A stretch of 64,000 bases of DNA from Nitrospirae bacterium GWF2_44_13 (GTDB taxonomy: Bacteria > Nitrospirota > Thermodesulfovibrionia > Thermodesulfovibrionales > UBA1546), in contig MHEE01000015.1 in the NCBI GenBank assembly GCA_001805105.1, positions 294,024 to 358,023 on the forward strand. The letters run 5' to 3'. Shown here one piece after another: positions 6,192 through 60,058 of this stretch. The position numbers and the translations under genes are program-made. Each line of letters starts with the position of its first letter. The first letter of the stretch is position 1. The notes beneath the pieces are model-generated. The model was given only the letters and a program-made list of their open reading frames with translations. It was not told the DNA's origin and searched no databases.

Positions 6192-6268
6192 CAAGATGCA
6201 GGATACAGGATACAGGATACAAGATACAACCCGCAAGAGATATATCTTGCATCTTGCATCATGCATCG
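6192..6268 (+). repeat. Heptamer palindromic element, family A copy 1 (in rlpA N-terminus)
   Basis: CAAGATG-(CAGGATA)3-CAAGATA ... TATCTTG-CATCTTG-CATCATG. Confidence 0.9.
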
Positions 6269-6996
6269 TTCTTTTTTTAATCACGGCTTTTCTCACTTCC
6301 TGCGGTGCACCAAGATACGGATACTACGAAGATTATCCCAAATACGAAACCCAGCCGAAGGAAAGCCCTCAGGAGACAAAACCATCAGGCACAAAACAAC
6401 CTGATGCAATACAGCCTGAGACAAAATATATAGTTGCCTCATGGTATGGGCCTGATTTTCATGGAAAGCTAACATCATCAGGCGAGCCTTATAATATGTA
6501 TGCAAATACATGCGCGCATAAGGAATATCCTTTCGGGACAAAGTTGAAAGTAACAAATATCTCAAACAATAAAACAACCGACTGCACCGTGACCGATAGA
6601 GGGCCCTTCATTCAGGGAAGGGACTTAGACCTATCCTATGCCTGTGCAAAAGAGATTGAGTTAATAGGACCGGGAACCGGAAAAGTAAGAATTGAACCGC
6701 TCGGAAGGGACATGCGGTATATAAAATATATAAAATATTCTCCATTGGGAGGCAGCGGGCCGTTTACAATACAGATAGGCTCATACAAAGACCTGTCTAA
6801 TGCCACACGCATGAAGGCGTCGCTGGAATTTAAATACAGCAAGGTGTATATAACGGAAGCGGAAATAAGCGGCAGCAAATACTACAGGGTAAGGGTCGGC
6901 AAGTTCAATTCAAAAGACGATGCATTCACCCTCGCAAAAACACTTGCGGATGAGGGATATAACACGCTGATTGCACCTTATGAGGAAAGGATATGA
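6196..6996 (+). CDS. rlpA: RlpA-family septal lytic transglycosylase lipoprotein (DPBB + SPOR)
   Basis: LTSC lipobox, ASWYG..FHG, DRGPF, DLS motifs, C-terminal SPOR (IQIGSY, YRVRVG). Confidence 0.88.
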   Translation: MQDTGYRIQDTTRKRYILHLASCIVLFLITAFLTSCGAPRYGYYEDYPKYETQPKESPQETKPSGTKQPDAIQPETKYIVASWYGPDFHGKLTSSGEPYNMYANTCAHKEYPFGTKLKVTNISNNKTTDCTVTDRGPFIQGRDLDLSYACAKEIELIGPGTGKVRIEPLGRDMRYIKYIKYSPLGGSGPFTIQIGSYKDLSNATRMKASLEFKYSKVYITEAEISGSKYYRVRVGKFNSKDDAFTLAKTLADEGYNTLIAPYEERI

Positions 6997-7676
6997 AATC
7001 AGGCATGAAAAAACTTGATGAGATTGTCAGATTTCACGGACACATCTGCCCCGGGCTTGTGCTCGGCTACAGGGTATCAGTGTTTGCCCTGAAAAATCTC
7101 GGCAAGCGGTCCAAGGATGAGGAGATTGTCGCAATCGTAGAAAATAACTCATGCGCCGTTGATGCTGTTCAGGTTATGACAAACTGTACATTTGGAAAAG
7201 GCAATCTTATTTTCAAAGATTACGGTAAACAGGTTTACACTTTTATTAAAAGGCCTTCTGGCAAGGCAGTAAGAATCTCAATTGACTGGACACCTTCTCC
7301 TGAAACAGAAAAACAAAAAGAGATGTGGCAGAGGTATATGAAGGGCAGCCGTTCAAAGGAAGTTCTGAAAGCAGTCCATCAAAGAAAAACAAAGAAAATA
7401 GAGTCCATCTTAAAGACGTCTGATAAGGATTTGTTTAAAATAAAACACCTGAAGATGCCGCTGCCTGAAGAGGCAAGGATATATCCGAGCGTAAGATGCG
7501 AGAAATGCGGTGAGAAAACCATGGAGCCGAGACTGAGGGTAAAAAATGGGAAGACGGTGTGTATCCCTTGCTTTGAGGGAAGGGGATTAAGTGGTATCAG
7601 GGAAAAGATGGCAAGCCTCGGCATTACCGAAAAAGACATTGCCGATGCGGTTAAATGGGCGAGAAAAAGAAGTTAA
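6993..7676 (+). CDS. FmdE-family protein with C-terminal Zn finger and extra antitoxin-like tail
   Basis: FHGHICPG, C..DAVQ..T.CTFGKGN, CEKC...CIPC. Confidence 0.85.
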   Translation: MKSGMKKLDEIVRFHGHICPGLVLGYRVSVFALKNLGKRSKDEEIVAIVENNSCAVDAVQVMTNCTFGKGNLIFKDYGKQVYTFIKRPSGKAVRISIDWTPSPETEKQKEMWQRYMKGSRSKEVLKAVHQRKTKKIESILKTSDKDLFKIKHLKMPLPEEARIYPSVRCEKCGEKTMEPRLRVKNGKTVCIPCFEGRGLSGIREKMASLGITEKDIADAVKWARKRS

Positions 7677-8077
7677 GGGTCGTCCTGGATACGAATGTCC
7701 TTGTATCCGCATTGCTGTTCAAGGGCAAACTCTCAAATATAGTTGACCTGTGGGAAAGAGGCAGAATAATCCCGCTAATCTCAAGAGAGACCTTTGAGGA
7801 ATTCAAGAAAGTTATTGCTTATCCAAAATTTTCCCTGACCGCAAGTGAGATAAGGACAATTATTGAGGAGAATATTCTGCCCTTTTTTGAGGTTGTAGAG
7901 GCAAATGAGGCAATAAGGGATGCTTGCAAAGACCGTGACGACGATAAATTCCTTTCATGCGCTGTTTCTGCGAAGGCAGCCTATCTTGTAACAGGAGATG
8001 CTTATTTGCTGTCAATGAAAAACTTCAGAGGCGTAAAAATTATCACTCCGAGAGACTTTGAGGCGTTGTTTGATTGA
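7655..8077 (+). CDS. PIN-domain toxin (VapC-like)
   Basis: RVVLDTNVLVSA, D.DDDKFL.CA, LVTGD. Confidence 0.88.
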   Translation: MGEKKKLRVVLDTNVLVSALLFKGKLSNIVDLWERGRIIPLISRETFEEFKKVIAYPKFSLTASEIRTIIEENILPFFEVVEANEAIRDACKDRDDDKFLSCAVSAKAAYLVTGDAYLLSMKNFRGVKIITPRDFEALFD

Positions 8078-8109
8078 TTCCCTCGCCCACTTAAATCCGA
8101 GAGATGTCT

Positions 8110-8895
8110 CTATGTTTTTCCTAGTAATGCATTTTCTAACGCCCACTCATCAGCCAATGATTTTATTAATGCATCCTCATTAAGATACATTGTATATCTA
8201 TTGATATTCATTTCACTCAGTTCTTTCATTAATTTGGCTTTGACATCTTTACTTATTGTAATTTCACGTAGCACATGTTCATTGCTTTTGCTTTCAAATA
8301 CTTTTCTGAATGTTATAAATTTCCATTCAGAATCATATTCTGTGGGAATAAGATATTGTGACTGTTGAGCAAAATGGCGTTTCCCCGCTTCCACGTATCT
8401 GCCAATTTTCCTTAAGCCTGGAACGTTATTTCCTCCAATTGTAAATTGAGGAGGTGAATATAAAAAGGTTTTTCCATCCTTCTTATCACCTTGATTAAAA
8501 TCTTCGCATGCAAAAAATAGGGCTATGAAACACGAATTCGAAAAATCAACCAAAGGAGTTGGAAATCCATGATGCCTTAAATATGCCAAATACTCCATTT
8601 CAGGCAATTCCCATGACCCTTGGTCATATTCCTTAAAATCAAATGGGTATCCTCTGCTCGTAGATTTTCTTTCATATCGATTTTCAATAAGTGGATTAAT
8701 AAGGGGTTTATATCTATCAATTATTCTATAATATTTTTCACATGCAATTACCTCGATTCCATGCCTCTCAAGCGATGATTTAATCTCCCAGCCACAGTTA
8801 CTTTGGCCCCTGAAAAGGGCTACTCGTTCATTGCCGAGTTCACATTTAAATTTTAAAATTTCTTCTCTGTAATCTCTTATTGTTTCAACCATCAC
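8110..8895 (-). CDS. FRG-domain protein
   Basis: LFRGQ, HHGFPTPLVDFS, ALFFAC, AQQS motifs; visibly AT-rich. Confidence 0.85.
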   Translation of the reverse strand: MMVETIRDYREEILKFKCELGNERVALFRGQSNCGWEIKSSLERHGIEVIACEKYYRIIDRYKPLINPLIENRYERKSTSRGYPFDFKEYDQGSWELPEMEYLAYLRHHGFPTPLVDFSNSCFIALFFACEDFNQGDKKDGKTFLYSPPQFTIGGNNVPGLRKIGRYVEAGKRHFAQQSQYLIPTEYDSEWKFITFRKVFESKSNEHVLREITISKDVKAKLMKELSEMNINRYTMYLNEDALIKSLADEWALENALLGKT

Positions 8896-8982
8896 TGTAA
8901 TTTTTTCCGAGGCACCATACCGGTTTCTTATTTCCCCGTCCCTCTCCCAAATCCTGCCCGCATTATAACAGAAAAATAAAAA

Positions 8983-9025
8983 AATGGTGAATAGGGGAAT
9001 AGGTGAATAGTGAATAGAGGAATTA
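8983..9025. repeat. Octamer repeat, family B (intergenic, single arm)
   Basis: AATGGTG-AATAGGGG-AATAGGTG-AATAGTG-AATAGAGG. Confidence 0.75.
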
Positions 9026-9027
9026 GC

Positions 9028-9282
9028 TTACAGTTTATAAATCTCTCGTCTATGTCCTACGGCTTTAATGACAATTGCATCTGCCTCAATTATATAAACG
9101 ACACGCCAGTCGCCAACTCTTAATTTAAACTGTCCCGACATATCGCCAGACAAGGGGTCCGGAGTTATGCTGTTGAAATGCTGCGAGAGCCATGAAATTT
9201 TATTAAGGATGCGCTTTACAATAGGATGGTCTATTATTTGAAGGTCATCTAAGGCTTCTTTTTCCCATTGAACCTTAGGCAA
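9028..9282 (-). CDS. RelE/ParE family toxin
   Basis: KLRVGDWRVVY, VGHRREIY. Confidence 0.9.
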   Translation of the reverse strand: MPKVQWEKEALDDLQIIDHPIVKRILNKISWLSQHFNSITPDPLSGDMSGQFKLRVGDWRVVYIIEADAIVIKAVGHRREIYKL

Positions 9283-9475
9283 ATCTCTTTAATACCTCTT
9301 CGTGGGCAATTCTCTTTGAGGGGTTTTTAAGCCTGTGTTCCAACTTAGCTTTAAACTCTTTTTTCAGATGAAGACCTGAATCGGGGTTGCCAATTATCTC
9401 AAGAAGTTTTTGCTCTACTATCTGTTCAACATCATCTATTGTCACCGCTTTTGCCCTTGCCATATACACCTCCAA
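9275..9475 (-). CDS. Probable antitoxin for the RelE toxin
   Basis: Small ORF overlapping the toxin start; PDSGL.LK.EF motif. Confidence 0.7.
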   Translation of the reverse strand: MEVYMARAKAVTIDDVEQIVEQKLLEIIGNPDSGLHLKKEFKAKLEHRLKNPSKRIAHEEVLKRFA

Positions 9476-9580
9476 TAATTTCTTATTATATTCTTTTAGC
9501 TAAAGATTGACAATAGGCGAATAATAAAAACCTTTCAGACTTGAAAAGACTTTGCACTCCACGTTAAAATCAAGGCAATC

Positions 9581-10459: not shown

Positions 10460-10461
10460 TC

Positions 10462-11823
10462 ATGGCTAAAGCAAAAACATTTTATCAGTGCCAGGCGTGC
10501 GGATACGTGAGCCCTAAATGGCTCGGCAAATGTCCTGACTGCGGGGAATGGAATACCCTTGCTGAAGAGAAAAAAGAGACCAGGCAGGGAAGAAAATCAT
10601 CGGGAAGGTCTGAACCCCAGCCCCTGAATACAATCGTCAGCGGAAAAGAAAAACGCACAACAACAGGGATAAAGGAATTTGACAGGGTTCTGGGAGGCGG
10701 GGTCGTTGCAGGCTCTGTAATCCTTGTCGGCGGAGACCCCGGAATCGGAAAATCAACTGTCCTTATTCAGGCGCTCTCCGGCCTCTCAAAAAAATATGAA
10801 AGCGTGCTCTATGTATCAGGAGAGGAATCTCCTGAACAGATAAAACTGAGAGCGGAAAGGCTTTCCGTAGATTCCGGCAAGATAATGCTTCTTGCCGAAA
10901 CATCGCTTGAGAATATACTTGACACAGCCTCAGAACTAAAACCCGGCGCAATAGTAATTGATTCCATCCAGACAATGTACACAGAGGAAATATTGTCGGC
11001 CCCGGGGTCTGTAAGTCAGGTGCGGGAATGTGCGGCAAGGTTGATGTTCTTTGCAAAGAAATCGGCAATACCAGTTTTCCTTGTAGGTCATGTGACAAAA
11101 GAAGGCGCAATTGCAGGGCCGAGGGTTCTTGAACATATAGTTGACACTGTGCTTTACTTTGAAGGAGACAGAGGGCATTCTTACAGGATTTTAAGGACTG
11201 TTAAAAACCGCTTTGGTTCAACAAATGAGATAGGCGTGTTTGAGATGACGGATTCAGGGCTTTCGGAGATTGAGAATCCATCTGAATTATTCCTCTCGGA
11301 AAGGCCGCTTAATGTCTCAGGCTCGACAGTTGTTGCAAGCATGGAAGGGACCAGGCCGCTGATGGTGGAGATTCAGGCTCTGGCCTCGCCGACAACATTC
11401 GGAATGCCGAGAAGGACAAGCATCGGAGTTGATTTCAACAGGGTTAATCTTCTGACTGCAGTACTTGAGAAAAAGGCAGGGCTCCATCTCAGTGGGATGG
11501 ATATATTTATAAACGTAGTCGGCGGGCTCAAAATAATTGAACCTGCTATTGACCTTGGAATTATAATGACGATTGCATCATCGCTGAGGGACATCCCCAT
11601 TGACCCTAAGATATTTATGTTCGGCGAGGTGGGCCTTTCAGGCGAAATACGCGCAGTTGCTTATGCGGAGCAGAGGATTAAGGAAGCCGCAAAGATAGGA
11701 TTCAAAAAAGCGCTCATGTCCAGAACAAACAGCGAAAGGCTGACGGCAGTTGAGCCTTTCGGGCTTGAGATAATGGGAGCGGGAAATGTTGAAGAGGCGC
11801 TTGAGGCAGTGCTCGGAATCTAA
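10462..11823 (+). CDS. radA: DNA repair protein RadA/Sms
   Basis: N-terminal C4 Zn finger, GDPGIGKST, KNRFG. Confidence 0.97.
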   Translation: MAKAKTFYQCQACGYVSPKWLGKCPDCGEWNTLAEEKKETRQGRKSSGRSEPQPLNTIVSGKEKRTTTGIKEFDRVLGGGVVAGSVILVGGDPGIGKSTVLIQALSGLSKKYESVLYVSGEESPEQIKLRAERLSVDSGKIMLLAETSLENILDTASELKPGAIVIDSIQTMYTEEILSAPGSVSQVRECAARLMFFAKKSAIPVFLVGHVTKEGAIAGPRVLEHIVDTVLYFEGDRGHSYRILRTVKNRFGSTNEIGVFEMTDSGLSEIENPSELFLSERPLNVSGSTVVASMEGTRPLMVEIQALASPTTFGMPRRTSIGVDFNRVNLLTAVLEKKAGLHLSGMDIFINVVGGLKIIEPAIDLGIIMTIASSLRDIPIDPKIFMFGEVGLSGEIRAVAYAEQRIKEAAKIGFKKALMSRTNSERLTAVEPFGLEIMGAGNVEEALEAVLGI

Positions 11824-11936
11824 GATGCAAGATACAGGATACAGGATACAGGATAAAAAAAATCATGCATCATGCATCATGCATCATACATCTGTATTTA
11901 CCCGATTCACCGATTCACCGATTCACCGATTCACCC
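11822..11936 (+). repeat. Family A copy 2 followed by family B octamers (in lipoprotein N-terminus)
   Basis: AAGATG-CAAGATA-(CAGGATA)3-A-tract-(CATCATG)n, then (GATTCACC)4. Confidence 0.9.
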
Positions 11937-12562
11937 TTCTGCTCTTCTGCGCTTCTGTTCTCCTGCTTTTATCTTCCTGCACTGCAAAGAGAGTTGAACT
12001 GCCTGATTACGAAGGCGTTGATGTAAGAACAGTTATCACCGAGCGCAAGAGCATAAAAGGCGTTAACGCAACTTTTCATGTTGAGTTTGAGAAGACTGAC
12101 AGCACAATGACAGGAGACGCTGCGCTCACGCTTACAGAGAAAGCCCTCGAGCTGAGGATATACTCTATGGGATTTCTCATGGCAGAAATAAAAGAGACAG
12201 ATGGGATAATAAAAAGCAATCCTCCCTCTGACAGGAATAAAAACATAATACTGGCAGAAGGTTTAAGAAGCAGTATATTGTGGTGGCTGATAAAAGACTA
12301 TGATGTTGAAGAGCAAAACAATAGTTATCATATCAGGAATTCAAGCCGGAAGATTGTCATTGATAAAAAAACCATGCTCCCTGTATCCCAGACGATAGAA
12401 CTTGAGAATGGAAAAGAACTCCGCATTTCTTACGGGGAACCTGCAAACAGCAATGGATTCTGGTATCCCTCAAGAATGAAGATAGAACTGTCAAAGTATG
12501 TTGTGAAACTGAAGATTAAGAGTATCTCCTTTATTCCTCACTCAGCCCAAGGTCCACAGTAA
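11825..12562 (+). CDS. Predicted outer-membrane lipoprotein (possibly LolB/DUF4292-like)
   Basis: Hydrophobic stretch and LSSC lipobox, beta-rich body; start moved to ATG 11825 just after the radA stop. Confidence 0.6.
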   Translation: MQDTGYRIQDKKNHASCIMHHTSVFTRFTDSPIHRFTLLLFCASVLLLLSSCTAKRVELPDYEGVDVRTVITERKSIKGVNATFHVEFEKTDSTMTGDAALTLTEKALELRIYSMGFLMAEIKETDGIIKSNPPSDRNKNIILAEGLRSSILWWLIKDYDVEEQNNSYHIRNSSRKIVIDKKTMLPVSQTIELENGKELRISYGEPANSNGFWYPSRMKIELSKYVVKLKIKSISFIPHSAQGPQ

Positions 12563-13349: not shown

Positions 13350-13352
13350 AGG

Positions 13353-15881: not shown

Positions 15882-15952
15882 GTTTAACTCTATGTCCATG
15901 CGGACTGAACTTTAAGAAACTTGTTTTAAAGAATATTAATGGAAGGTGAGTA

Positions 15953-29469: not shown

Positions 29470-30414
29470 TTATCCTGCCTTATTTATTAACCCGTCAAGA
29501 ATCTTCCATGCCCTTTTGAATATCTCATTGACATCCTGAATGCCTGTAGTATCTATCCAGTGTATATCCTCTTCTTTATTGAACCATGTATACTGCCTCT
29601 TGGCATAACGCTTTGTGCTCCTCTTAGTGAGCCTTATTGCCTCTTCAAGCGGTATCTCCCCATTAAGATACATTGCAATCTCTTTGTATCCTATTGCCTG
29701 CAGAGCGGTGAGGGGGTGAATCGGTGAAGAGGTGAATCGTTCTATCAGACTCTTTACTTCGTCTACAAATCCCGCCTCAATCATTTTATCAACCCGTTCT
29801 TCAATCATTTTATAAAGCTCTTTTCTGTCCCTTGTAAGCCCGATCTTTATGAACTCGTATGGAAGCGGTCTTGTCAATTTCTGCTGGAGTTCCGACATGC
29901 CCTGTTTTGTCTTCAGACAGACTTCAATCGCCCTTATAATGCGCCTTGTGTCAGCAGGCATTATTTTTGACGCCGCCTCAGGGTCAAGTTCCAACAGATA
30001 ACTATAAAGCGCGCCGTCCTGTCCTTCCTCAAGAGAAGCAAGTTCTTCCCTTAGCTTCCAGTCAGCGGAAGGCCCGCTGAATATCCCCCTTGTCATTGCC
30101 TTTATGTAAAGCCCTGTCCCTCCTGCAACGATAGGGATTTTACCTCTTCTGTGAAGCTCCTCTATTATTGGCGTCACATCTTCAATGTATCTGCCAACGC
30201 TGAATGGCTCTGCAGGACTTACACTATCTATCATGTAATGCTTATAGCTAATCCTCTGCGCTTCAGACAGCTTTGCAGTACCGATATCCATTCCTTTATA
30301 TATTTGCATTGAATCTGCGCTGATTATCTCTGTGCCCAAAGCCTTTGCAATAAGGATGGAGACCTCTGTCTTTCCAACGCCTGTCGGTCCTAATAAAATA
30401 ATTACTTTATTCAT
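29470..30414 (-). CDS. miaA: tRNA dimethylallyltransferase
   Basis: [29 protein letters not shown]. Confidence 0.97.
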   Translation of the reverse strand: MNKVIILLGPTGVGKTEVSILIAKALGTEIISADSMQIYKGMDIGTAKLSEAQRISYKHYMIDSVSPAEPFSVGRYIEDVTPIIEELHRRGKIPIVAGGTGLYIKAMTRGIFSGPSADWKLREELASLEEGQDGALYSYLLELDPEAASKIMPADTRRIIRAIEVCLKTKQGMSELQQKLTRPLPYEFIKIGLTRDRKELYKMIEERVDKMIEAGFVDEVKSLIERFTSSPIHPLTALQAIGYKEIAMYLNGEIPLEEAIRLTKRSTKRYAKRQYTWFNKEEDIHWIDTTGIQDVNEIFKRAWKILDGLINKAG

Positions 30415-47300: not shown

Positions 47301-47382
47301 TATGATGCATGATACACGATACATGATGCAGAATATTTTTTATCGGTACTCCTGCATCCTGAATCTTGCATCCTGTATCTTG
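47301..47382 (-). repeat. Family A copy 3 (intergenic fabG-acpP)
   Basis: Minus strand: CAAGATA-CAGGATG-CAAGATT-CAGGATG...CATCATG-TATCGTG-TATCATG-CATCATA. Confidence 0.88.
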
Positions 47383-49219: not shown

Positions 49220-51601
49220 ATGGCAAAAGCAGCGGAAAAAGAAGAAAAAGAAAAAGAGATTGAGATTCCTCAAAGCCTTCCTGTGCTTCCTATAAGAGAT
49301 ATAGTTGTCTTTCCTTATATGATACTCCCTCTTTTTGTGGGAAGAGAAATGTCCATAAAGGCGATAGAGCATTCATTAAGCACAAACAAGATGATAATGC
49401 TTATTGCTCAGAAAGACCTTAATGCTGAGAATCCGTCGCCTTCCGACCTCTACAATGTAGGCACCGTAGGGCTCATAATGAGGATGCTCAAACTCCCTGA
49501 CGGCAGAGTCAAGGTGCTTGTGCAGGGGCTGAGCAAGGCAAAGGCAGTAAAGTTTCTCAAAGAAGAGCCGTTCTTTACTGCGGCCATAGAAAAAATAACA
49601 GATACTCAGCCCGAAGAAATAACTATAGAGACTGAGGCGATAATGAGAACTGTGAAGGAACAGATAGACAAAACAGTCTCTCTCGGAAAAACAATACTCC
49701 CTGATATCATGATTGTGATTGAAAATCTTGAAGACCCCGGAAAACTTGCCGACCTCATTGCCTCAAATATCGGATTAAAAACAGAGCAGGCGCAGGAAGT
49801 GCTTGAGATGAGCGAACCGGCCCTGCGGCTGAAAAAAGTCAGTGAAATACTGAGCAGGGAGATAGAGCTTCTTACAGTCCAGCAGAAAATCCAGACAGAA
49901 GTCAGGGGTGAGATAGACAAGAATCAGAGGGAATATTTCCTCAGAGAGCAGCTTAAGGCGATACAAAAAGAGCTTGGCGACATTGATGAGCGCTCGGAAG
50001 AGATAAAGGAATTCAAGAAAAAGATTTTGGAAGTAAAGATGCCTGAAAAAGTTCAGAAAGAGGCCGAGAAACAGCTTAAGCGCCTTGAGAAGATGCACCC
50101 TGACAGCGCCGAGGCAGGAACTGTAAGGACCTATCTTGAATGGATGGTTGAACTGCCGTGGTCCAAACAGACAAAAGACAATCTTGATATAAAAGCGGCA
50201 AAAAAAGTTCTTGATGACGACCACTATGACTTAGAGAAAGTAAAAGAGCGGATACTTGAATATCTCAGCGTAAGAAAGCTGAGGAAAGAAAAGATGAAAG
50301 GCCCTATACTCTGTTTTATAGGCCCTCCGGGAGTTGGGAAGACGTCACTGGGAAAATCCATTGCAAGGTCGCTCGGAAGAGAATTCGTCCGCATGTCTCT
50401 GGGAGGAGTCAGAGACGAAGCAGAAATCAGAGGACACAGAAGGACATATGTAGGCGCGCTTCCCGGCAGGATGATACAGGGCATAAAAACAGCCGGCACC
50501 AACAATCCTGTTTTCATGCTTGACGAGATAGACAAGATTGGAATGGATTTCAGGGGAGACCCCTCATCAGCGCTTCTTGAGGTGCTGGACCCTGAGCAGA
50601 ACAACACCTTTGTGGACCATTACCTTACGGTTCCCTTCGACCTTTCAAGGGTGATGTTCATAACAACAGGAAACCTTGTTGACACAATACCCAACCCCCT
50701 GCGCGACAGGATGGAGATAATCTATCTCTCGGGATATACGTCAGAGGAAAAGCTCGGCATTGCAAAAAATTATCTTATTCCGAAACAGCTTGAAGAACAC
50801 GGTATAACAGACAAGGTGCTGAAGATAGCAGACTCCGCGGTTCTTACAATAATATCTCAGTATACGAGAGAAGCGGGCGTCAGAAATCTTGAAAGGGAGA
50901 TAGCCAATCTCTGCAGAAAAGTCGCAAAGAAAATAGCGGAGGGGAAACAGAAAAATTTTCTTATAACTTCAAGAAATCTGCATAAATTTCTCGGCATCCC
51001 CAAATACCTTCTCGAAGAAGAGATGGAAAAAGACGAGGTCGGCGTTTCAACCGGCCTTGCATGGACAGAGTCGGGAGGCGACATAATCTATGTTGAGGCT
51101 ACAACAATGAGGGGCAAGGGCAGTCTCACGCTGACAGGCCAGCTCGGAGACGTTATGAAGGAGTCTGCGCAGGCAGCTTTAAGCTATGTCCGCTCAAAGG
51201 CTAAGTCGCTCGGGATAAAGGATGAGGTTTTCTCAAAGACAGATATTCACATACATGTCCCTGCAGGCGCAACACCCAAAGACGGGCCTTCAGCAGGCAT
51301 AACAATGGCAACTGCAATTGCATCGGCGCTTACAGGAAACCCTGTAAGAAAAGATTTCGCAATGACCGGCGAAGTGACATTGAGAGGCAGGGTGCTTCCG
51401 ATAGGCGGGCTAAAAGAGAAGGCTTTAGCGGCAAAGAGAATGGGCATAAAACATATCGTTATCCCAAAAAGAAATAAAAAAGACCTTGAAGATATTCCGA
51501 AATACGTAAAGAAAGACCTGACATTCATCTTTGCCGATACAATGGATGATGTGCTTAAAGCAGCGCTGAAGAAAAATTCAAAAATCAAAAATAAAAATTA
51601 A
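49220..51601 (+). CDS. lon: Lon protease
   Basis: [24 protein letters not shown]. Confidence 0.97.
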
Positions 51602-51651
51602 AAGATAATGAGTTCAATAATTTTAAATTTTGCTTTTTTAATTTTGAATTT
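51574..51651. repeat. AT-rich tandem/inverted repeat overlapping the lon stop
   Basis: AAATTCAAAAATCAAAAATAAAAATTAAAA ... TTTTAAATTTTGCTTTTTTAATTTTGAATTT. Confidence 0.7.
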
Positions 51652-51654
51652 GCT

Positions 51655-52737
51655 ATGAAGCTTTATGCTATCGGCGAATCATCCCTTCTGAAAACAATCC
51701 GCAGAAGATTTACCGTAAAATCAAAAGATGTCATCGTGGGCATAGGCGATGACACGGCAGTAATAAAACCCTCGGGCAATAATTTACTGGCAACCACTGA
51801 TATGATGGTTGAAGGCATTCACTTTGACCTGAACCTTACAACGCCCTATCAGCTCGGATTCAAACTCGTATCCGTAAATGTTAGCGACATCTATGCGATG
51901 GGTGGAAGGCCTCAATATCTTTTGCTTGATATTGCATTGAACAAAAATACAGAGCAGTCATTTGTTGACAGATTTTTCGACGGCATACGCCGTGCAATGA
52001 AATTATACGGGGTCTTTCTTATAGGCGGAGACCTTTCTTCTTCAAGAAAAGATATAGTCCTTGCAGCAACACTCATAGGTGATGCGAAAAAGCATATAAG
52101 ACGCTCAGGCGCAAAACCCGGGGACAGGATATATGTAACAGGGAATCTCGGAGATTCAGCATGCGGGCTGGAAGTGCTTAAGAGGATAAAACAACCGTTT
52201 CATATCAAAAAAACGATACAAGATGCAAGATACAAGATTCAGGATAAAAAAAATCATGAATCGTGCATCATGAATCGTGCATCTGAACCACTAACGCTGA
52301 ACTCTGACCTTTCTAAGCTTGGACTCACATGGAATATTGTTAGCCCTCTGCTTAAGAGGCATCTCATGCCTGAGGCAAGAAATCCGGAGAAATTTATCAG
52401 ATATGCTACTTCAATGATTGACTTAAGCGACGGGCTGTTTATTGACCTCTCAAGGCTCTGCGATGAAAGCAGGGTCGGCGCAAAGATATTCATAGAGCGC
52501 ATACCTGTCTCCGGCCGGATGAGAACTGCATCTTCCCTGCTTGGGCTGGACGCCATGAAACTTGCCTGCTCAGGCGGAGAAGACTATGAACTGCTTTTCA
52601 CGGCGCCGGCAGATAAAAAAATCAACGCCGTATATATCGGCGACATCGTAAAATCAGGAAGAAAAATCATAGATAAAAACGGCGGAGAGAAAAAGTTCTC
52701 CGCATCCGGATACCAACATTTTGAAACTCAGAGATAG
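51655..52737 (+). CDS. thiL: Thiamine-monophosphate kinase (with in-frame repeat insertion)
   Basis: GIGDD.A, NVSDI.AMG, IDLSDGL, GGEDYELLFT. Confidence 0.95.
   Translation: MKLYAIGESSLLKTIRRRFTVKSKDVIVGIGDDTAVIKPSGNNLLATTDMMVEGIHFDLNLTTPYQLGFKLVSVNVSDIYAMGGRPQYLLLDIALNKNTEQSFVDRFFDGIRRAMKLYGVFLIGGDLSSSRKDIVLAATLIGDAKKHIRRSGAKPGDRIYVTGNLGDSACGLEVLKRIKQPFHIKKTIQDARYKIQDKKNHESCIMNRASEPLTLNSDLSKLGLTWNIVSPLLKRHLMPEARNPEKFIRYATSMIDLSDGLFIDLSRLCDESRVGAKIFIERIPVSGRMRTASSLLGLDAMKLACSGGEDYELLFTAPADKKINAVYIGDIVKSGRKIIDKNGGEKKFSASGYQHFETQR
52213..52311 (+). repeat. Family A copy 4 (in thiL) plus a TGAACT-like heptamer tail
   Basis: Encodes TIQDARYKIQDKKNHESCIMNRASEPLTLNSDL. Confidence 0.88.
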
Positions 52738-53158: not shown

Positions 53159-54662
53159 GTTTTCTCTTGTAAGCATGGGATGTCCGAAAAACCTTGTTGA
53201 CTCTGATAATCTTACGGAGAAACTCATCAACTGCGGATTATCGTACATTGATAATTATGAAAATGCAGAGATACTCATCATAAACACATGCGGTTTCATA
53301 CAAGACGCAAAAAAAGAGTCTATAGCAGAGATACTAAAGCTTGCTGAGATAAAAAAGGGGCCGGAAAATATGCAGGATTCAGTCTCCTCAGGCGACTCGC
53401 TAAGGCGAGGATCCAGAATTCAGGATAAAAAAAATCGTGAATCGTGCATCGTGCATCATGAATCAAAAGGCAATAATAAGAAACTTATCGTCTTCGGATG
53501 TCTTGCAAAAAGGTACAGAGACGAACTCCTCAAAGAGATTCCGGAGATAGATGCAATATTCGGCGTCGGAGAAGATGAAAGGATAGTTGAGTATTGCAAA
53601 AGTCAAAGGAAGATGCAGGATGCAGGATACATGACGCAGGATAAAAAAAATCAGGCATCGTGCATCGTGAATCATGCATCGTTTTTATTCGCCTCATCTT
53701 CCTATGCCTATCTCAAAATAGCGGAAGGCTGCAGCAGAAAATGCACATATTGCGTTATCCCCTCAATCAGAGGAGAATACAAAAGCGCCGCACCTGATGA
53801 AATTCTTAAAAAAGCAGAGGGATATATAAATGCAGGGATAAAAGAGCTTATTCTTATTGCGCAGGATACTGCATCTTACGGCAAAGACCTCAACGGTTAT
53901 GACATTGCTGCTCTCCTCAAAGGCCTCTGCTCAATAAAAGGTGATTTCAGGATACGGCTTCTCTATGCCTATCCTGCGTCAATAAAAGAATCGCTGCTGA
54001 AGGTAATTGCCGAAGAAGAAAAGATATGCAAGTACCTTGATATACCCTTTCAGCACTCTGAGGACAGAATCCTAAAGCTCATGAAAAGAGGAGGCGGCAG
54101 AAATGAATACCTGAACCTCACCAGAAAAATCAGGCGCGCCATACCTGGTATTGCGCTCAGGACAACATTCATAGCGGGTTTTCCCTCCGAGACAGAGGAG
54201 GAATTCAACTCGCTTATAAAATTCATGGAGGAAGCAGAGTTTGACAGGCTTGGCGCCTTTAAATATTCAAAAGAAGAAGGCACGCCTGCCGCAAAACTCA
54301 AGGGACATCTGACAGAGGCAATAAAAAACAGAAGGCTTGATACAATAATGAGGCATCAGGCAGATATATCCCTGAAGAAAAACAAGGCATTAATAGGCAG
54401 GAGATTTAAGGCTGTAGTTGACGAGGTTGACAATGAGATAGCCATCGGAAGATTATACTCTCATGCGCCCGAGATAGACGGAGTGGTGATTATTGAAGAT
54501 ACAGGATTCAAGATACAAGATGCAGGATACAAGATAAAAGATAAAAATGATGCATCATGCATCAGGCATTATGCATCATTGGAATTAAAAGCCGGTAATT
54601 TTGTTACTGTAGAGATCACGGATGTTTATGATTATGATCTGAAAGGGAAGATTGTTGTGTAA
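53148..54662 (+). CDS. rimO: Ribosomal protein S12 methylthiotransferase RimO (three in-frame repeat insertions)
   Basis: GCPKNLVDS, NTCGFI, KIAEGC...C.YC.IP, APEIDG, YDL.G. Confidence 0.95.
   Translation: MSNKFSLVSMGCPKNLVDSDNLTEKLINCGLSYIDNYENAEILIINTCGFIQDAKKESIAEILKLAEIKKGPENMQDSVSSGDSLRRGSRIQDKKNRESCIVHHESKGNNKKLIVFGCLAKRYRDELLKEIPEIDAIFGVGEDERIVEYCKSQRKMQDAGYMTQDKKNQASCIVNHASFLFASSSYAYLKIAEGCSRKCTYCVIPSIRGEYKSAAPDEILKKAEGYINAGIKELILIAQDTASYGKDLNGYDIAALLKGLCSIKGDFRIRLLYAYPASIKESLLKVIAEEEKICKYLDIPFQHSEDRILKLMKRGGGRNEYLNLTRKIRRAIPGIALRTTFIAGFPSETEEEFNSLIKFMEEAEFDRLGAFKYSKEEGTPAAKLKGHLTEAIKNRRLDTIMRHQADISLKKNKALIGRRFKAVVDEVDNEIAIGRLYSHAPEIDGVVIIEDTGFKIQDAGYKIKDKNDASCIRHYASLELKAGNFVTVEITDVYDYDLKGKIVV
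53370..53464 (+). repeat. Family A copy 5 (in rimO) with nested 27-nt GC hairpin
   Basis: Encodes MQDSVSSGDSLRRGSRIQDKKNRESCIVHHES. Confidence 0.88.
53610..53681 (+). repeat. Family A copy 6 (in rimO)
   Basis: Encodes KMQDAGYMTQDKKNQASCIVNHAS. Confidence 0.88.
54496..54579 (+). repeat. Family A copy 7 (in rimO TRAM domain)
   Basis: Encodes DTGFKIQDAGYKIKDKNDASCIRHYAS. Confidence 0.88.
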
Positions 54663-54672
54663 AGACACTAAG

Positions 54673-54842: not shown

Positions 54843-54863
54843 TGTTGGAGGACATATCTGCAG

Positions 54864-55706: not shown

Positions 55707-55802
55707 ATGGAATACCCTTGATTTTTATCGTGGTTTAATTGACAATAATAACTAATCCGTTGCGCGTAAAGCGTAGCGAGTAACGCCTAAGGAGACCTAT
55801 AA

Positions 55803-56246
55803 ATGAAACTAATTCTCAAGGAAGACGTGAAGAATCTCGGCAAGATGGGCGATATTGTCAATGTCGCTGAAGGCTATGCAAGAAATTTTCTTATTCCCAA
55901 AAAACTGGCAGTGGAGGCAGTCACGGGAAACATAAAGGAGCTTGAACACCAGAAAAAAATAATTCAGGAAAAGGCAAAGAAACAGAAGAACTCGGCTCAG
56001 ACACTTTCCGGAAAAATAGCATCGCTTAACCTGTTCATAAAGGCAAAAGTAGGCGAAGAAGAGAAACTCTTCGGCTCTATCACCTCAATGGACATTGCCG
56101 CAGCGCTTAAAAATGAAGGCATTGACATAGATAAGAAAAAAATATCCATAGAAGCGCCGATTAAAAGGCTCGGCGCTTACACCGTGAGCGTAAAGGTTCA
56201 CTCTGATATAACAACACAACTGAACATTACGGTAATCGCGGAATAA
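55803..56246 (+). CDS. rplI: 50S ribosomal protein L9
   Basis: LG..GDIV.VA.GYARNFLIP, KLFGSIT. Confidence 0.97.
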   Translation: MKLILKEDVKNLGKMGDIVNVAEGYARNFLIPKKLAVEAVTGNIKELEHQKKIIQEKAKKQKNSAQTLSGKIASLNLFIKAKVGEEEKLFGSITSMDIAAALKNEGIDIDKKKISIEAPIKRLGAYTVSVKVHSDITTQLNITVIAE

Positions 56247-57616
56247 TGAAAAATACAGACCTGACGACAAACAAGCTGCCGCCCCAGAACATTGAGGCAG
56301 AGCAGTCTGTCCTCGGCGCAATCATGATAGAAAATGATGCGTTCCCGAAAATCATCGAGATTATCACGCGTGAAGATTTTTACAGAGAATCGCACAGGAA
56401 AATTTTTGACGCGATGATAGAACTCTTTGAAAAAAATGAGCCTATTGACCTGATAACAATCTCGGAAGAACTCAGGAAAAGAAACGACCTTGACGCAGTG
56501 GGCGGAGAACCATATCTGTCTGCCCTTGCAAGCCAGGTTCCCACCGCTGCGAACATAAAATATCATTCAAAGATAATCCGTGAAAAAGCTCTCATGCGGT
56601 CGCTCATAAAATCCGCTTCTGAAATTGCAGGCAGGGTTTATGAAGACAACCTGGATGCCGACGAACTTGTTGATAATGCGGAAAGAATAATTTTTAACAT
56701 ATCGGACAAGCGCATAAAGGCGTCCTTTGTAACTTTGAAAGAACTGATAAAGGGCAGCTTTGAGACTATAGAGTATCTTTATGACAAAAAGAGCGCAATA
56801 ACAGGCGTTGCGTCGGGGTTTACCCAGTTGGATGAGCTGACGTCAGGATTTCAGAGGGGCGACCTGATAGTGATAGGCGGAAGGCCTTCTATGGGGAAAA
56901 CAGCGTTCAGCCTTGATATTGCCCGTCAGGTTGGTGTTGAGCTGAAAGAACCTGTCGCAATATTCAGTCTGGAAATGTCAAAGGAACAGCTGGCCCTGAG
57001 AATGCTCTGTTCAGAAGCCAGGGTTGACTCCAACAGCGTAAGAAAAGGGTTCATAAGAAAAGAGGACTGGAGCAAACTCACAAATGCCGCAGGCAAACTC
57101 ACAGAGGCGCCTGTCTTCATAGATGATTCCTCAAACATAAATGTCCTTGAGATGAGGGCTAAAGCGCGGCGGCTTAAACTTGAACACAAGGGATTAAGCC
57201 TCATAGTAGTGGACTACCTCCAGCTGATGAGAGGCAGAGGAGGCTTTGACAAGAACAGGGAACAGGAAATCTCAGAGATATCCCGTTCGCTCAAGGCGCT
57301 GTCCAAAGAACTGCAAGTGCCCGTAATAGCGCTGAGCCAGCTAAACAGAGGCGTAGAGCAAAGGAACGACAAAAGGCCTAATCTCTCTGATTTGAGAGAG
57401 TCAGGCGCAATAGAGCAGGATGCGGACGTCATAATCTTCCTCTACAGGGATGAATTCTACAATAAGGATTCTAATGACAGGGGCAAGGCGGAAATCAATG
57501 TTGCAAAGCAGAGGAACGGTCCGACCAGAACAATCAATCTCGCATTCTTCCCGCAATACACAAGATTTGAAAACTATAGCGACAGGCAATATAGCGAAAC
57601 AGAAGAGGTCTTCTAA
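56246..57616 (+). CDS. dnaB: Replicative DNA helicase
   Basis: PPQNIEAEQSVLG, RPSMGKT, VDYLQL, DLRESGAIEQDAD. Confidence 0.97.
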   Translation: MKNTDLTTNKLPPQNIEAEQSVLGAIMIENDAFPKIIEIITREDFYRESHRKIFDAMIELFEKNEPIDLITISEELRKRNDLDAVGGEPYLSALASQVPTAANIKYHSKIIREKALMRSLIKSASEIAGRVYEDNLDADELVDNAERIIFNISDKRIKASFVTLKELIKGSFETIEYLYDKKSAITGVASGFTQLDELTSGFQRGDLIVIGGRPSMGKTAFSLDIARQVGVELKEPVAIFSLEMSKEQLALRMLCSEARVDSNSVRKGFIRKEDWSKLTNAAGKLTEAPVFIDDSSNINVLEMRAKARRLKLEHKGLSLIVVDYLQLMRGRGGFDKNREQEISEISRSLKALSKELQVPVIALSQLNRGVEQRNDKRPNLSDLRESGAIEQDADVIIFLYRDEFYNKDSNDRGKAEINVAKQRNGPTRTINLAFFPQYTRFENYSDRQYSETEEVF

Positions 57617-57618
57617 AC

Positions 57619-58422
57619 ATGCGGCGGCTGCCAGCAGTTGCAGGACAGTTCTATCAGGGCACAGCATCAAAACTGACACAGCAGGTCAAACAATACATAA
57701 ATAACAGCGCCGCAAAAGAACATGCCATCGGGATACTCTCTCCGCACGCGGGGCTCATATACTCGGGCCCTGTTGCAGGAGAGGTATACTCAGCAATAGA
57801 GTTTCCTAAAACATTCGTGCTTATAGGCCCGAATCATACAGGCATTGGCGCAAAGGTTTCCATGATGGCGTCAGGTGAATGGGAAATACCGACGGGTATT
57901 TTCTCCATAGACGAGAAGCTTTCACGGAGAATAGCAGCAAACACACCGATAATTTCAGAAGATGCACAGGCACATACATTTGAGCATTCACTTGAGGTGC
58001 AGCTTCCGTTCATAGCATATTTTTCCACAGAGCCGAAGATCGTGCCGATTACAGTTATGTCAGCTTCTCTCGAAGAATGCCGTTTGCTCGGCGAAGGAAT
58101 TGCAAAATCAATAAAAGAAGTCAAGTACGCCGTTGTCATAGCTGCAAGTTCTGACATGAGCCATTATGTGCCGGATGATGTTGCAAGGCAGAAAGACAAA
58201 AAAGCGATAGAAATGATTAAGTCCCTGAACCCTGAAGGGCTTTATACTGTTATATCAAGGGAGGGGATTTCCATGTGCGGCTATCTTCCGGCAACAATAA
58301 TGCTCTTTGCAGCAAAGGCGCTCGGAGCAATTGAGGCAAGGCTCGTTAAATACGCCACTTCTGGCGAAATCAGCGGAGACTATGACCAGGTAGTGGGCTA
58401 CGCAGGCATGATAGTGAAGTAA
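57619..58422 (+). CDS. MEMO1-family protein (AmmeMemoRadiSam protein B)
   Basis: R.PAVAG.FY, PHAG..YSG, EHSLEVQLPF, SSD.SHY, VVGY. Confidence 0.92.
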   Translation: MRRLPAVAGQFYQGTASKLTQQVKQYINNSAAKEHAIGILSPHAGLIYSGPVAGEVYSAIEFPKTFVLIGPNHTGIGAKVSMMASGEWEIPTGIFSIDEKLSRRIAANTPIISEDAQAHTFEHSLEVQLPFIAYFSTEPKIVPITVMSASLEECRLLGEGIAKSIKEVKYAVVIAASSDMSHYVPDDVARQKDKKAIEMIKSLNPEGLYTVISREGISMCGYLPATIMLFAAKALGAIEARLVKYATSGEISGDYDQVVGYAGMIVK

Positions 58423-58468
58423 TGGCGGGGTGAATCCCGATCTTATCGGGACGACCTCCCCAAAGGTA

Positions 58469-58545
<77 letters not shown>

Positions 58546-58557
58546 AAGGCAAAAAAA

Positions 58558-58633
58558 TGGTAGGCGGAACAGGGATTGAACCTGTGACATCAGCCTTGTA
58601 AGGGCTGCGCTCTCCCAGCTGAGCTATCCGCCC
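58558..58633 (-). tRNA. tRNA-Val(TAC)
   Basis: GGGCGGA...TCCGCCT-ACCA, anticodon CT-TAC-AA. Confidence 0.95.
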
Positions 58634-58702
58634 GAAAAGAGACTAATATTAAACTATATAGGGATATACTTTGTCAAATATATTGTGATAAAATGAGGCA
58701 GA

Positions 58703-59371
58703 ATGAAGGATCCAGGATGCATGATACAAGATTCAGGATGCATGATACAAGATTCAGGATGCATGATACACGATACAAGATTCAGGATTACTGATAAAAA
58801 AACTATCCTGCATCGTGTATCGTGTATCATGCATCGGAAAAGTCGTACATCATGCATCGTGCATCGTGATAACAACGGCTTCACCCTCATTGAAACAATA
58901 ATGGTGATGGTCATTGCAGTCATTCTTGCTGCCGTGGTTGCCGTCAGATGGAGCCCTTTTGATACAATCAAACTCAACAGCGCAACAAGAAAAGTCGCCG
59001 GTGACATAAGATACGCCCAAAAAGTTGCAATCTCAACTCAGGCAACATACGCCGCAATTGCGTTCAACACAAACGGATATACTGTATATGATACTTACTC
59101 ATCTATCATTTCCCGAAGTCCCGGTGACCCCTGCTCGGATAATGGAGGAAACTTTGAGGTGGCATTTAATACGCCAAGGTGCAGTAATTTCAGCGGAGTA
59201 ACAATAACCACCAACATCACCGATGACGTATTGCAGTTCAACAGCCTTGGTACACCCCTTCAGGGCATCTTCGCCTCAGTCATCCCCTCCGACAGAACCA
59301 TAACTATAACTTATAAAGACAGTAAACCCATCTACATTGAAGTAGGCACAGGAAGGGTGAGCTATCAATGA
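58703..59371 (+). CDS. Type IV minor pilin (FimU/GspH/MshC-like) with repeat-derived leader
   Basis: DNNG|FTLIE cleavage motif, DIRYAQ..A, FNSLG.P, TGRV. Confidence 0.85.
   Translation: MKDPGCMIQDSGCMIQDSGCMIHDTRFRITDKKTILHRVSCIMHRKSRTSCIVHRDNNGFTLIETIMVMVIAVILAAVVAVRWSPFDTIKLNSATRKVAGDIRYAQKVAISTQATYAAIAFNTNGYTVYDTYSSIISRSPGDPCSDNGGNFEVAFNTPRCSNFSGVTITTNITDDVLQFNSLGTPLQGIFASVIPSDRTITITYKDSKPIYIEVGTGRVSYQ
58706..58869 (+). repeat. Family A copy 8 (longest; prepilin leader)
   Basis: Includes tandem CAGGATGCATGATACAAGATT 21-mers, then a CATCGTG/TATCATG arm. Confidence 0.9.
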
Positions 59372-59964
59372 GCAGGATACAGGATAAAAAGAAGATGCAA
59401 GATACAAGATACATGATACATGATAAAGAAAAAAACAAGTTAGGCATCTTGCATCTTGACAATAAAGGCTTCTCCCTCATTGAGATAATCATGATAATCA
59501 TAGTAGTTTCTATTGCAATCCCTGCGCTTTTAATTTTAGTTGGCGGTGAAGCAGGCCGCGGGGTTGAGCCCGAGTTAAGGATTACTGCAACAAATGTGGC
59601 GCAGCAATTAATGGACGAGATAATGACAAAATGCTGGGATGAAACAGCTACAACAACCGCTAACTGCGGCGGAACAGTATCATATTCTGATTTGGGAATT
59701 GACGGCGGTGAAACTGCCGGAACTTTATCAACTTATGATGACGTGGATGACTATACTACAGGAGGCGTTCCTGCCGTAGTTATACCTGCGGGCGGAGTAT
59801 CTTATTCAAGAAGCGTTGTTGTATGTTATGTTCCATACAACGACCTAACTACTACCACTTGTAACACAACCGCTGTATTAGGAACAGATTATAAACGCAT
59901 AGCAGTAACAGTCACCCGCGGGGACACTACTGTTACGCTTACAACAGTGATGACGAACTACTAA
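59368..59964 (+). CDS. Type IV minor pilin (PilV/MshD-like) with repeat-derived leader
   Basis: DNKG|FSLIE, YDDVDDY, KRIAVTV. Confidence 0.85.
   Translation: MSRIQDKKKMQDTRYMIHDKEKNKLGILHLDNKGFSLIEIIMIIIVVSIAIPALLILVGGEAGRGVEPELRITATNVAQQLMDEIMTKCWDETATTTANCGGTVSYSDLGIDGGETAGTLSTYDDVDDYTTGGVPAVVIPAGGVSYSRSVVVCYVPYNDLTTTTCNTTAVLGTDYKRIAVTVTRGDTTVTLTTVMTNY
59373..59458 (+). repeat. Family A copy 9 (prepilin leader)
   Basis: CAGGATA/CAAGATA/CATGATA units ... CATCTTG x2. Confidence 0.88.
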
Positions 59965-59969
59965 ATTAA

Positions 59970-60058
59970 CAAGATGCAGGATACAAGATACATGATACAT
60001 GATAAAGAAAAAACCAAGTTAGGCATCGTGCATCGTGCATCATGCATCATGCATCGTG
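59970..60058 (+). repeat. Family A copy 10 (prepilin leader)
   Basis: CAAGATG-CAGGATA-CAAGATA-CATGATA x2 ... CATCGTG/CATCATG x5. Confidence 0.88.

Follow-up and report, generated by a model that had tools for sequence, protein, structure and literature searches.

How does a small palindrome come to lie in frame, and without stop codons, inside the conserved enzymes of a bacterium, and why is it still there? The question is raised by a 64,000-nt stretch of the genome of a groundwater organism, Nitrospirae bacterium GWF2_44_13 (assembly GCA_001805105.1, contig MHEE01000015.1, here C15, positions 294024-358023; hereafter the window, in which a position equals the C15 position minus 294023). A preliminary description, made from the letters alone, had noted in it ten dispersed copies of an imperfect hairpin with arms of tandem heptamers. 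In-frame palindromic repeats in essential enzymes are textbook-rare and, to our knowledge, known mainly from Rickettsia; their entry route and their role have been debated since 2000. We think it reasonably probable that the copies form a lineage-specific family of small imperfect palindromes with tandem-heptamer arms, that within genes they persist in frame and free of stop codons much as a Rickettsia palindromic element (RPE) does, and that the hairpin is kept by selection.

Element architecture and nucleotide constraint

The element has a simple layout. A left arm, (GATNCAR)n, is followed by an A-rich loop, often GAT, eight A and TC, and by a right arm, (TGNATCR)n. In the window the left-arm pattern (three GATNCAR units plus GAT, with at most one mismatch) matched 22 times, compared to 0 times in each of 100 dinucleotide-preserving shuffles. 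All ten copies of the preliminary description were present, and an independent scan recovered exactly these ten. Scanning the whole assembly (1.99 Mb, 18 contigs, 43.7% G+C, 100% complete by marker genes) for a left-type array followed by a right-type array within 70 nt gave 82 copies. Rfam at gathering thresholds matched five tRNAs in the window and nothing else. The number of left-arm units ranges from 2 to 11, but the earlier statement that it differs in every copy went too far, as a 72-nt form is common. This form equals 24 codons, which is how the reading frame is kept despite a 7-nt unit.

The arms pair as an imperfect hairpin, as had been proposed. In the 63 of the 82 copies for which the hairpin geometry could be set, the five fixed positions of each unit were Watson-Crick paired in 1166 of 1210 cases. 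The N2.N4 position was mismatched on both strands in 189 of 240 cases, and the N1.N3 position was Watson-Crick in 49 of 227, fewer than the 69.6 expected from shuffled partners. At N1.N3 the most frequent state was an A facing a C in the sense strand, equivalent to G.U in the antisense strand. The element comes close to being its own reverse complement, and two features set its polarity: the A-rich loop, which lies on one strand (taken as sense), and the seventh position of the unit, which is a purine in both arms on that same strand and thus forms a purine-purine mismatch in the hairpin. Flank profiles were A-rich on the 5' side and mildly T-rich on the 3' side. They held no consistent target duplication, and one comparison of a filled with an empty site was compatible with a short A-rich duplication.

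The family is largely confined to one lineage. Other genomes of the family had the left-arm pattern in 17 of 19 cases, and those of the same genus in 10 of 10, compared to 1 of 21 genomes from other families of the order, while a reversed control pattern gave 0 matches in all genomes but one. Of 401 genomes sampled across the phylum, 4 contained a strict pattern for the centre of the element, and these belong to a single genus; the pattern had 0 matches in viral contigs, which were searched for phage carriage. A loose search of the genomes of 185,579 species returned tandem GATNCAR arrays in many phyla (at least 119 stretches), its pattern selecting for this unit, so that the counts do not speak to its frequency relative to other heptamers. 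Among the 80 loci listed from these matches, the full element architecture was present in four, labelled Nitrospirota, Nitrospiraceae or Thermodesulfovibrionales, and several were hairpins with other right arms. Bacteroidota, Verrucomicrobiota, Anaerolineae, Acidobacteriota and Gallionella were among the taxa of the listed loci with GATNCAR-type arrays; in other phyla a reverse-complementary array often stood next to such an array, making a perfect or near-perfect hairpin.

Many copies in other genera are orthologous to copies of this genome, including those at a site in a ThiL-like gene and at the second of three sites in a methylthiotransferase gene. Length was kept, with 0 gap codons in most orthologue pairs. 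Orthologous elements had an identity of 0.903 (n = 7), compared to 0.805 for non-orthologous ones (n = 18, maximum 0.861). In six gap-free orthologue pairs the elements differed at 7, 15 and 22 of 142 first, second and third codon positions, and their flanks at 458, 347 and 1159 of 2537; 13 of the differing bases in the elements fell in synonymous and 31 in non-synonymous codon pairs.

A larger set of 14 pairs in other genera, aligned by hairpin geometry, separated the bases of the paired skeleton from the variable ones. Skeleton positions differed in 24 of 545 cases (4.4%; 8 of 178 at third codon positions), and variable positions in 88 of 215 (41%; 25 of 62, 27 of 75 and 36 of 78 by codon position). 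As flanking third codon positions differed at ~46%, the evolution of skeleton bases is about ten-fold slower than that of synonymous sites nearby. Thus, the constraint is on nucleotides and not on the peptide. Nor did copies evolve in concert: paralogue identity within the genome (0.761) equals that to non-orthologous copies of other genera (0.76-0.79), so homogenisation among copies is not the cause of the conservation. Since the bases that pair in the hairpin are almost unchanged across genera, the element is probably not plain junk DNA.

We read these comparisons as pointing to an old burst of insertion followed by vertical descent, during which purifying selection acted on the bases that pair in both arms but left the peptide free. 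Some gains came later. The first methylthiotransferase site was empty (108 nt) in three genomes of two genera and filled (195 nt) in one sister species, so empty sites of the kind that had been called for do exist, and some gains postdate the split of the genera. In this genome the same site is 222 nt long because of a nested 27-nt repeat.

Copies inside genes, their orientation and their phase

The ten copies in the window lie at the following positions, relative to open reading frames (ORFs).

6192-6268, plus strand: copy 1, 3 nt past the stop of an HslU-like AAA ATPase ORF (4813-6189, AAA_2); shares an open frame with an RlpA-like lipoprotein ORF (6196-6996, DPBB_1 and SPOR)
11822-11893, plus strand: copy 2, canonical form, starting at the stop of ORF 10462-11823; shares an open frame with a lipoprotein-like ORF (11786-12562)
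47301-47382, minus strand: copy 3, intergenic, in the sense orientation of the fab operon on the minus strand, lying between the stop of the FabG-like gene (47383) and the ribosome-binding site of the short gene that follows, which we read as acpP
52213-52287, plus strand: copy 4, in frame within a ThiL-like ORF (51655-52737), residues ~187-210
53369-53465, plus strand: copy 5, site 1 of a RimO/MiaB-family methylthiotransferase ORF, residues ~74-106; the left arm holds the nested 27-nt hairpin repeat (~53383-53409)
53610-53681, plus strand: copy 6, site 2 of the same ORF, in the linker that joins the UPF0004 domain to the radical SAM domain, residues ~155-178
54496-54580, plus strand: copy 7, site 3 of the same ORF, in the TRAM domain region, residues ~451-473
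58706-58868, plus strand: copy 8, long form with 11 left units, in a prepilin-like ORF (58703-59371), in open frame ahead of the N-terminal methylation motif (residues 55-79)
59373-59458, plus strand: copy 9, 5' end of a prepilin-like ORF (59368-59964)
59970-60058, plus strand: copy 10, 5' end of a prepilin-like ORF (59974-60573; methylation motif at residues 28-52)

Nine of these had been described as translated in frame. Only four are truly internal to enzymes (one in the ThiL-like protein, three in the methylthiotransferase). The other five, at the 5' ends of the RlpA-like lipoprotein gene, the second lipoprotein-like gene and the three prepilin-like genes, are in open frame only, and the true start could equally be an ATG or TTG that lies in phase inside the right arm or beyond it. 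For the internal copies, each of which keeps the frame and has no stop codon, the sequence argues that they are read through.

The elements of the window are not an assembly artefact, since contigs from independent DNA runs spanned all four elements between 52000 and 55000 with 0 differences (X9 records 26, 30 and 32; X18 records 9 and 16), with the proviso that these DNA samples may come from one campaign. Contigs from an RNA run (X20) were mostly 90-95% alike to the window, and so come from relatives. Their joints across 52173-52375 and 53329-53493 fit strain differences at variable sites and are no evidence of splicing.

In the whole genome, 44 of the 82 copies lie wholly within ORFs, 19 run across an ORF end and 19 are intergenic. 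Of the 44, 41 are sense to their ORF, so that the claim of a dispersed family written into proteins stands. In the remaining three the polarity marks are ambiguous, and for two of these the ORF start is no more than two codons away. Counting as deep-internal those copies at least 30 residues from both ORF ends, there are 28 sense copies (29 with one of ambiguous polarity) in 26 host ORFs. Pfam was used to name 20 of these 26 ORFs and two in the window, four being left unscanned. The hosts include the housekeeping proteins QueC, QueA, Tgt, TsaD, YbeY, an RsmE-type methyltransferase and the RimO/MiaB-family methylthiotransferase with its three copies, as well as the ThiL-like protein, LpxK, HypF, CarB, DapF, uracil-DNA glycosylase, a nitrogenase-like protein and others. 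By plain count, seven of the 22 Pfam-scanned hosts are related to tRNA, rRNA or their modification (QueA, QueC, Tgt, TsaD, RimO/MiaB-family, RsmE-type and YbeY).

Where in the protein do the insertions fall? The sites are loops, domain linkers and N-terminal leaders. The copy in alanine racemase lies exactly between the N- and C-terminal domains, that in CobB/CobQ lies between domains, and that in a histidine kinase lies within the ATPase domain. An AlphaFold2 model of the methylthiotransferase, built on an alignment of 20 orthologous sequences, had a mean predicted local distance difference test score (pLDDT) of 80.7 and a predicted template modelling score (pTM) of 0.79. Only residues 74-108, 157-182 and 454-477 had pLDDT <50. 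These are the three insertions, and no secondary structure was predicted there. The inserted peptide is rich in His and Cys, and each copy adds 20-40 residues to a conserved protein. For annotation, this means that the insertions create false N-terminal extensions and lengthen conserved proteins.

The translated copies are read mostly in one phase. Assigning phase by a register-based rule, checked against the printed codons, we found the loop-proximal GAT read as a codon (CAG GAT AAA) in 33 of the 41 sense copies within ORFs and in 23 of the 28 deep-internal ones. The AGG ATA AAA phase was assigned to three copies, two of which are actually in the common phase with a mutated GAT, and the GGA T.. 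phase to five, which are variants without TAA or copies with nested inserts. Of the 41 copies, 23 had no stop codon in the +1 frame and 8 had none in the +2 frame. The same preference was seen in 40 loci of four other genera, where 22 copies were sense within open frames of at least 100 residues and every deep-internal copy was in the common phase. One N-terminal copy used the other open phase, and five apparently antisense copies all lay 4-22 residues from the frame start. Outside ORFs, phases were 13/9/10 relative to the neighbouring gene in the 32 copies with a co-directional neighbour. Thus, these phases are random and the phase lock is confined to translated copies, which is as expected of a selection filter and offers no hint of phase-aware insertion.

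Orientation, in contrast to phase, is kept outside genes too. Among the 38 non-ORF copies, both neighbouring genes share the element's orientation in 30, both have the opposite one in 4, and 4 are mixed; for the 19 strictly intergenic copies the corresponding numbers are 15, 1 and 3. The same polarity relative to transcription, first noted for the ten copies, therefore holds in the window and genome-wide. Operon-spacer copies typically begin 0-10 nt past the upstream stop; their ends lie 10-30 nt short of the next start, immediately before its ribosome-binding site. An approach based on TRF, pairing arrays and measuring polarity by purine-richness, gave only 28 hairpins and no usable polarity signal.

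What could set this polarity? Open frames are fewer in antisense: 33 of 82 copies had no open frame in antisense compared to 9 of 82 in sense, and, reckoned from the frame counts, ~26% of antisense and ~48% of sense phase choices are open. Antisense RNA also folds more stably, with a mean of -26.6 kcal/mol compared to -23.9 kcal/mol for sense (more stable in 48 of 81 copies, Wilcoxon p 0.005), and the canonical copy differs more strongly (-32.6 and -15.5 kcal/mol). The next 8 nt contained 3.94 T after antisense and 2.86 T after sense copies, an excess of U that arises because the sense 5' flank is A-rich. A terminator-like antisense hairpin would be the likeliest reason, judging from these folds and flanks, for the sense polarity of both coding and spacer copies.

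Spread, selection and alternative explanations

How would such a family have arisen? In the explanation that we favour, the element spread mainly in the ancestor of the bacterial family; vertical inheritance followed, and some copies were gained or replaced later. The orientation and phase seen today would be the remainder after selection. An antisense insertion would bring more stop codons and a stronger terminator-like RNA hairpin. Among the sense phases, one would be filtered out by a TAA in the loop. The other open phase would place the A-run in the slippery register A AAA AAA, and the host protein would then share its frame with an AUG that is preceded by AGGA and an A-rich spacer. Selection at the level of the host would keep the hairpin itself, in RNA or in single-stranded DNA, most likely as a structure acting in cis in transcripts, and the regular mismatches would keep it weak enough for translation and replication.

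Orthologous sites do not always hold this element. At the methylthiotransferase sites and the ThiL-like site, sister species had the same element, a version with a G+C-rich loop, a different repeat (such as a tandem repeat of 8 nt, or heptamer hairpins of other kinds whose loop is A-rich) or nothing. In the FabG-like/acpP spacer a heptamer-armed hairpin was present in 12 of 14 loci, drawn from at least seven different unit families: GATNCAR (two genomes), AGTGTCA-type (three), AAAAGTT-type (two), AAAAT-rich (two) and, in single genomes, TAGGGTT-type, CTAAATC-type and a further type, this last in a genome of another family. The two remaining loci had only a short AGCTGAT-type tandem array and no evident repeat, respectively. 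Genome-wide, tandem arrays of at least 2.8 copies numbered 215 for period 7, compared to 30, 39 and 21 for periods 6, 8 and 9. The variety at the same sites means either that permissive sites were repeatedly hit by mobile hairpin families or that a structure-directed process seeds or replaces hairpins.

Several further repeats occur at these sites or elsewhere. The 27-nt hairpin repeat (GGCGA..TCGCC type) nested in the left arm of methylthiotransferase site 1 (window 53383-53409) also occurs in the C14:51049 region, has flanking copies at C12:288877, C15:387365 and C17:9130, and stands alone at site 1 in a sister species (locus L006; 135 nt compared to the empty 108 nt). It behaves as an independent dispersed repeat of very small size would. 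A G+C-rich hairpin of ~45 nt, encoding a proline/glycine-rich peptide, takes the place of the A-rich loop at three sites in two sister species (two sites at L004, and L002), and is either a nested loop insertion or part of a composite subfamily. Period-8 tandem repeats (CCGATTCA type and a related one) lie in the window at 4186-4220, 11902-11935, 29706-29739 (minus strand) and 8975-9023, and also occupy methylthiotransferase sites 2 and 3 in sister species; the one at 11902-11935 is directly behind copy 2 and is read as part of the lipoprotein leader. The spacer that separates the Lon protease stop from the ThiL-like start (51573-51651) is filled by a second heptamer-armed hairpin of the window, whose arms are of the AAAAATC and AATTTTG types. 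Related A/T-rich heptamer arrays occur genome-wide (17 of the AAAAGTT type and 13 of the AAAATTC type), and several adjoin tRNA genes. The TAGGGTT/AATCCCT-type hairpin of one fabG-acpP spacer (L214, genome G003) has telomere-like G-runs that could form quadruplexes.

A number of points weigh against the explanation that we favour. Neither a function nor a binding protein nor a mobilising enzyme came to light for the element. The estimate of constraint counts an orthologue only if it can still be recognised as an element, and at some orthologous sites the sequence is decayed, deleted or of another kind. The gene calls are crude; they consist of longest ORFs, with a minimum of 70 codons, taken greedily in order of length. 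Stop codons alone fail to explain the single phase, because of the many stop-free +1 frames, and they fail to explain the polarity, because the roughly two-fold difference in open phases (~26% and ~48%) stands against a ratio of 41 to 3. The extra filters that we propose (the terminator-like antisense hairpin, the slippery A-run and the in-frame internal start) are possible readings of the sequence, and a simple terminator scan flagged no element on either strand except an internal fragment (54564-54548). Finally, sister species have other heptamer hairpins at corresponding sites, which suggests an active process outside the scope of this explanation.

Could that process be the origin of the family? 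In the leading alternative, cellular machinery, or template switching at hairpins during replication, creates or swaps heptamer-armed hairpins at given sites in a strand-aware manner; the unit is interchangeable and the polarity comes from the mechanism. The preliminary description had likewise proposed a strand-aware seeding system, possibly RNA-templated or based on single-stranded DNA hairpins. The many unit families of the FabG-like/acpP spacer, the different or nested repeat families at the methylthiotransferase and ThiL-like sites, the excess of period-7 arrays, the loosely similar heptamer hairpins in many phyla and the shared orientation of 15 of the 16 strictly intergenic copies with co-directional neighbours all speak for it. 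We nevertheless hold it to be unlikely. Many copies are old, stable and inherited vertically across genera, not freshly seeded or turning over. The random phase of the non-ORF copies points to filtering by selection, the shared loop and length fit the copying of a finished element better, and permissive sites hit by several mobile families would look the same. A profile search of the assembly gave 0 matches to Y1_Tnp (PF01797), with a control search matching in 6 of 14 known genomes, and RVT_1 (reverse transcriptase), a TnpB-type domain and DDE_Tnp_1 were not found in it either, other transposase families not having been searched. Repeats and insertion sequence (IS) elements are often missing from draft assemblies.

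A broader idea would join selection with seeding. It is possible, though not likely, that fixed positions (operon spacers just past stop codons, and loops of housekeeping enzymes), filled by such a hairpin in nearly every species of the family, need one, and that a structure-specific process seeds or replaces interchangeable heptamer hairpins there. If true, this would explain why a ten-fold conservation of paired bases is found beside actively kept mismatches; the agent would be an enzyme or a hairpin-triggered template switch, and the need would lie in transcripts or in single-stranded DNA.

The copies might instead be purely selfish or neutral insertions of the RPE kind, tolerated, slowly decaying and without a role for the host. 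Such insertions would be expected at tolerant protein sites predicted to be disordered, with an unconstrained peptide, with decayed or deleted copies at some orthologous sites and with no function to be found, all of which is the case here. What makes this reading quite unlikely is the skeleton, which differs at 4.4% compared to ~41-46% for variable and synonymous positions, and does so in all three codon positions, with no concerted evolution to mimic constraint. Mismatches at variable positions are also kept above chance, as the deficit of Watson-Crick pairs at N1.N3 indicates.

We consider it very improbable that each site grew independently, by local slippage and fold-back duplication with no copying between sites. 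The unit skeleton and the loop are common to about 80 sites, and often so is the length of 72 nt; orthologues keep their length, and units within one array differ from each other at variable positions, so slippage has not homogenised them. This leaves unaffected what favours slippage in general, namely the variable unit number and an over-representation of heptamer repeats, a trait reported from many bacteria in a paper that also cites a polymerase-footprint hypothesis (PMC4692102, as far as its available text goes).

Scarcely credible, lastly, is a functional peptide (for example a metal-binding tag, given its Cys and His) or an array of sites for a known regulator, because first and second codon positions at variable sites change freely while skeleton third positions are conserved, the insertions are predicted to be disordered, CsrA was found in 0 of 20 genomes of the element-bearing family compared to 9 of 21 of neighbouring families, and neither HutP nor TRAP was found in this genome. 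The left-arm unit resembles the CsrB repeat and known RNA targets of CsrA, and HutP sites have a 7-nt period; a CsrA sponge acting through the CAGGAU units and a HutP- or TRAP-type ring protein on triplets spaced by 7 nt were the candidates rejected on these grounds. As binders, the named regulators are largely refuted; another binding protein is possible and would fall under the explanation that we favour. As a speculation, the loss of CsrA might have let GGA-rich repeats spread in transcripts.

Comparison with known systems

Full-text literature searches returned no description of this family, supplementary files, which might list further families, lying outside their coverage. The analogues named at the outset, RPEs and heptamer tandem repeats, were well chosen. 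By analogy, the element works like an RPE, but we do not file it as a member. Both are small palindromes that occur between genes and, with unusual frequency, as in-frame fusions to unrelated conserved enzymes. Each gives rise to a peptide typical of its family, and neither has a known transposase, as far as the consulted parts of the RPE literature tell (PMC10969869, PMC2229807). The hallmark of a palindromic repeat in frame in unrelated conserved genes is borne out here by the 41 sense copies within ORFs, 28 of them deep-internal. The differences, which rest on published descriptions and not on sequence comparison, are the host lineage (Nitrospirota/Thermodesulfovibrionales), the length (~72 nt compared to 105-150 bp in the RPE descriptions at hand), the arms of tandem heptamers with their period-7 pattern of mismatches, and the nucleotide-level constraint on paired bases across genera.

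Repetitive extragenic palindromic (REP) sequences and the related BIMEs and REPINs are likewise hairpin repeats in operon spacers near stop codons, transcribed with the operon, and in the accounts consulted REPs are thought to influence mRNA stability and termination. Their hallmarks are an extragenic position, a short G+C-rich palindrome with a GTAG or CGTC head, and a Y1 (RAYT) transposase. The element differs on each count: 44 of its 82 copies lie within ORFs, its arms are A+T-rich heptamer arrays without such a head, and a RAYT-type Y1 transposase was not found in this genome. Miniature inverted-repeat transposable elements have as their hallmarks terminal inverted repeats, a target-site duplication and a related full-length IS. 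Here the whole element is the inverted repeat, the flanks hold no consistent duplication (a short A-rich one would fit the single filled/empty comparison), and Y1, DDE_Tnp_1 and TnpB-type domains were not found. In cyanobacteria, small dispersed repeats are reportedly nested within other repeats, as the 27-nt and ~45-nt G+C-rich hairpins are nested in heptamer elements and also stand alone at the same sites; this parallel concerns the nested passengers and not the heptamer element itself.

Heptanucleotide repeats such as the cyanobacterial short tandemly repeated repetitive sequences and the Xanthomonas GGGAATC repeat share the excess of period 7, which this genome also displays. In the text available to us, such arrays sometimes form inverted pairs that can fold into stem-loops, they are located near gene ends, and their length and sequence differ from one related species to another; the excess of heptamer repeats in bacteria is on record there together with a hypothesis of polymerase slippage or footprint (PMC4692102). 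The same text describes these arrays as intergenic, whereas the element is a fixed, dispersed hairpin that is also translated, in one phase. Coding palindromes of Nematomorpha mitochondria resemble it in that inverted repeats are kept within functional protein-coding genes. Those repeats, as the accessible part of their description has it, are perfect and long, with both arms encoding conserved regions under amino-acid selection (PMC6649704), whereas the element is an extra, inserted segment with an unconstrained peptide.

The lineage thus offers a second and cleaner case of in-frame coding palindromes, with a short element and a simple periodic grammar. Its value lies in dozens of orthologous copies across genera, in conserved paired bases beside freely changing unpaired ones, in a single phase, and in sister species with other heptamer hairpins at identical sites. 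Three questions become testable with it: whether selection acts on nucleic-acid structure, what filters orientation and phase, and whether the heptamer excess of bacteria is tied to hairpin formation. Three features go beyond the described analogues: the ten-fold split in conservation between paired and unpaired bases, the single reading phase, and the interchangeable heptamer hairpins at fixed sites.

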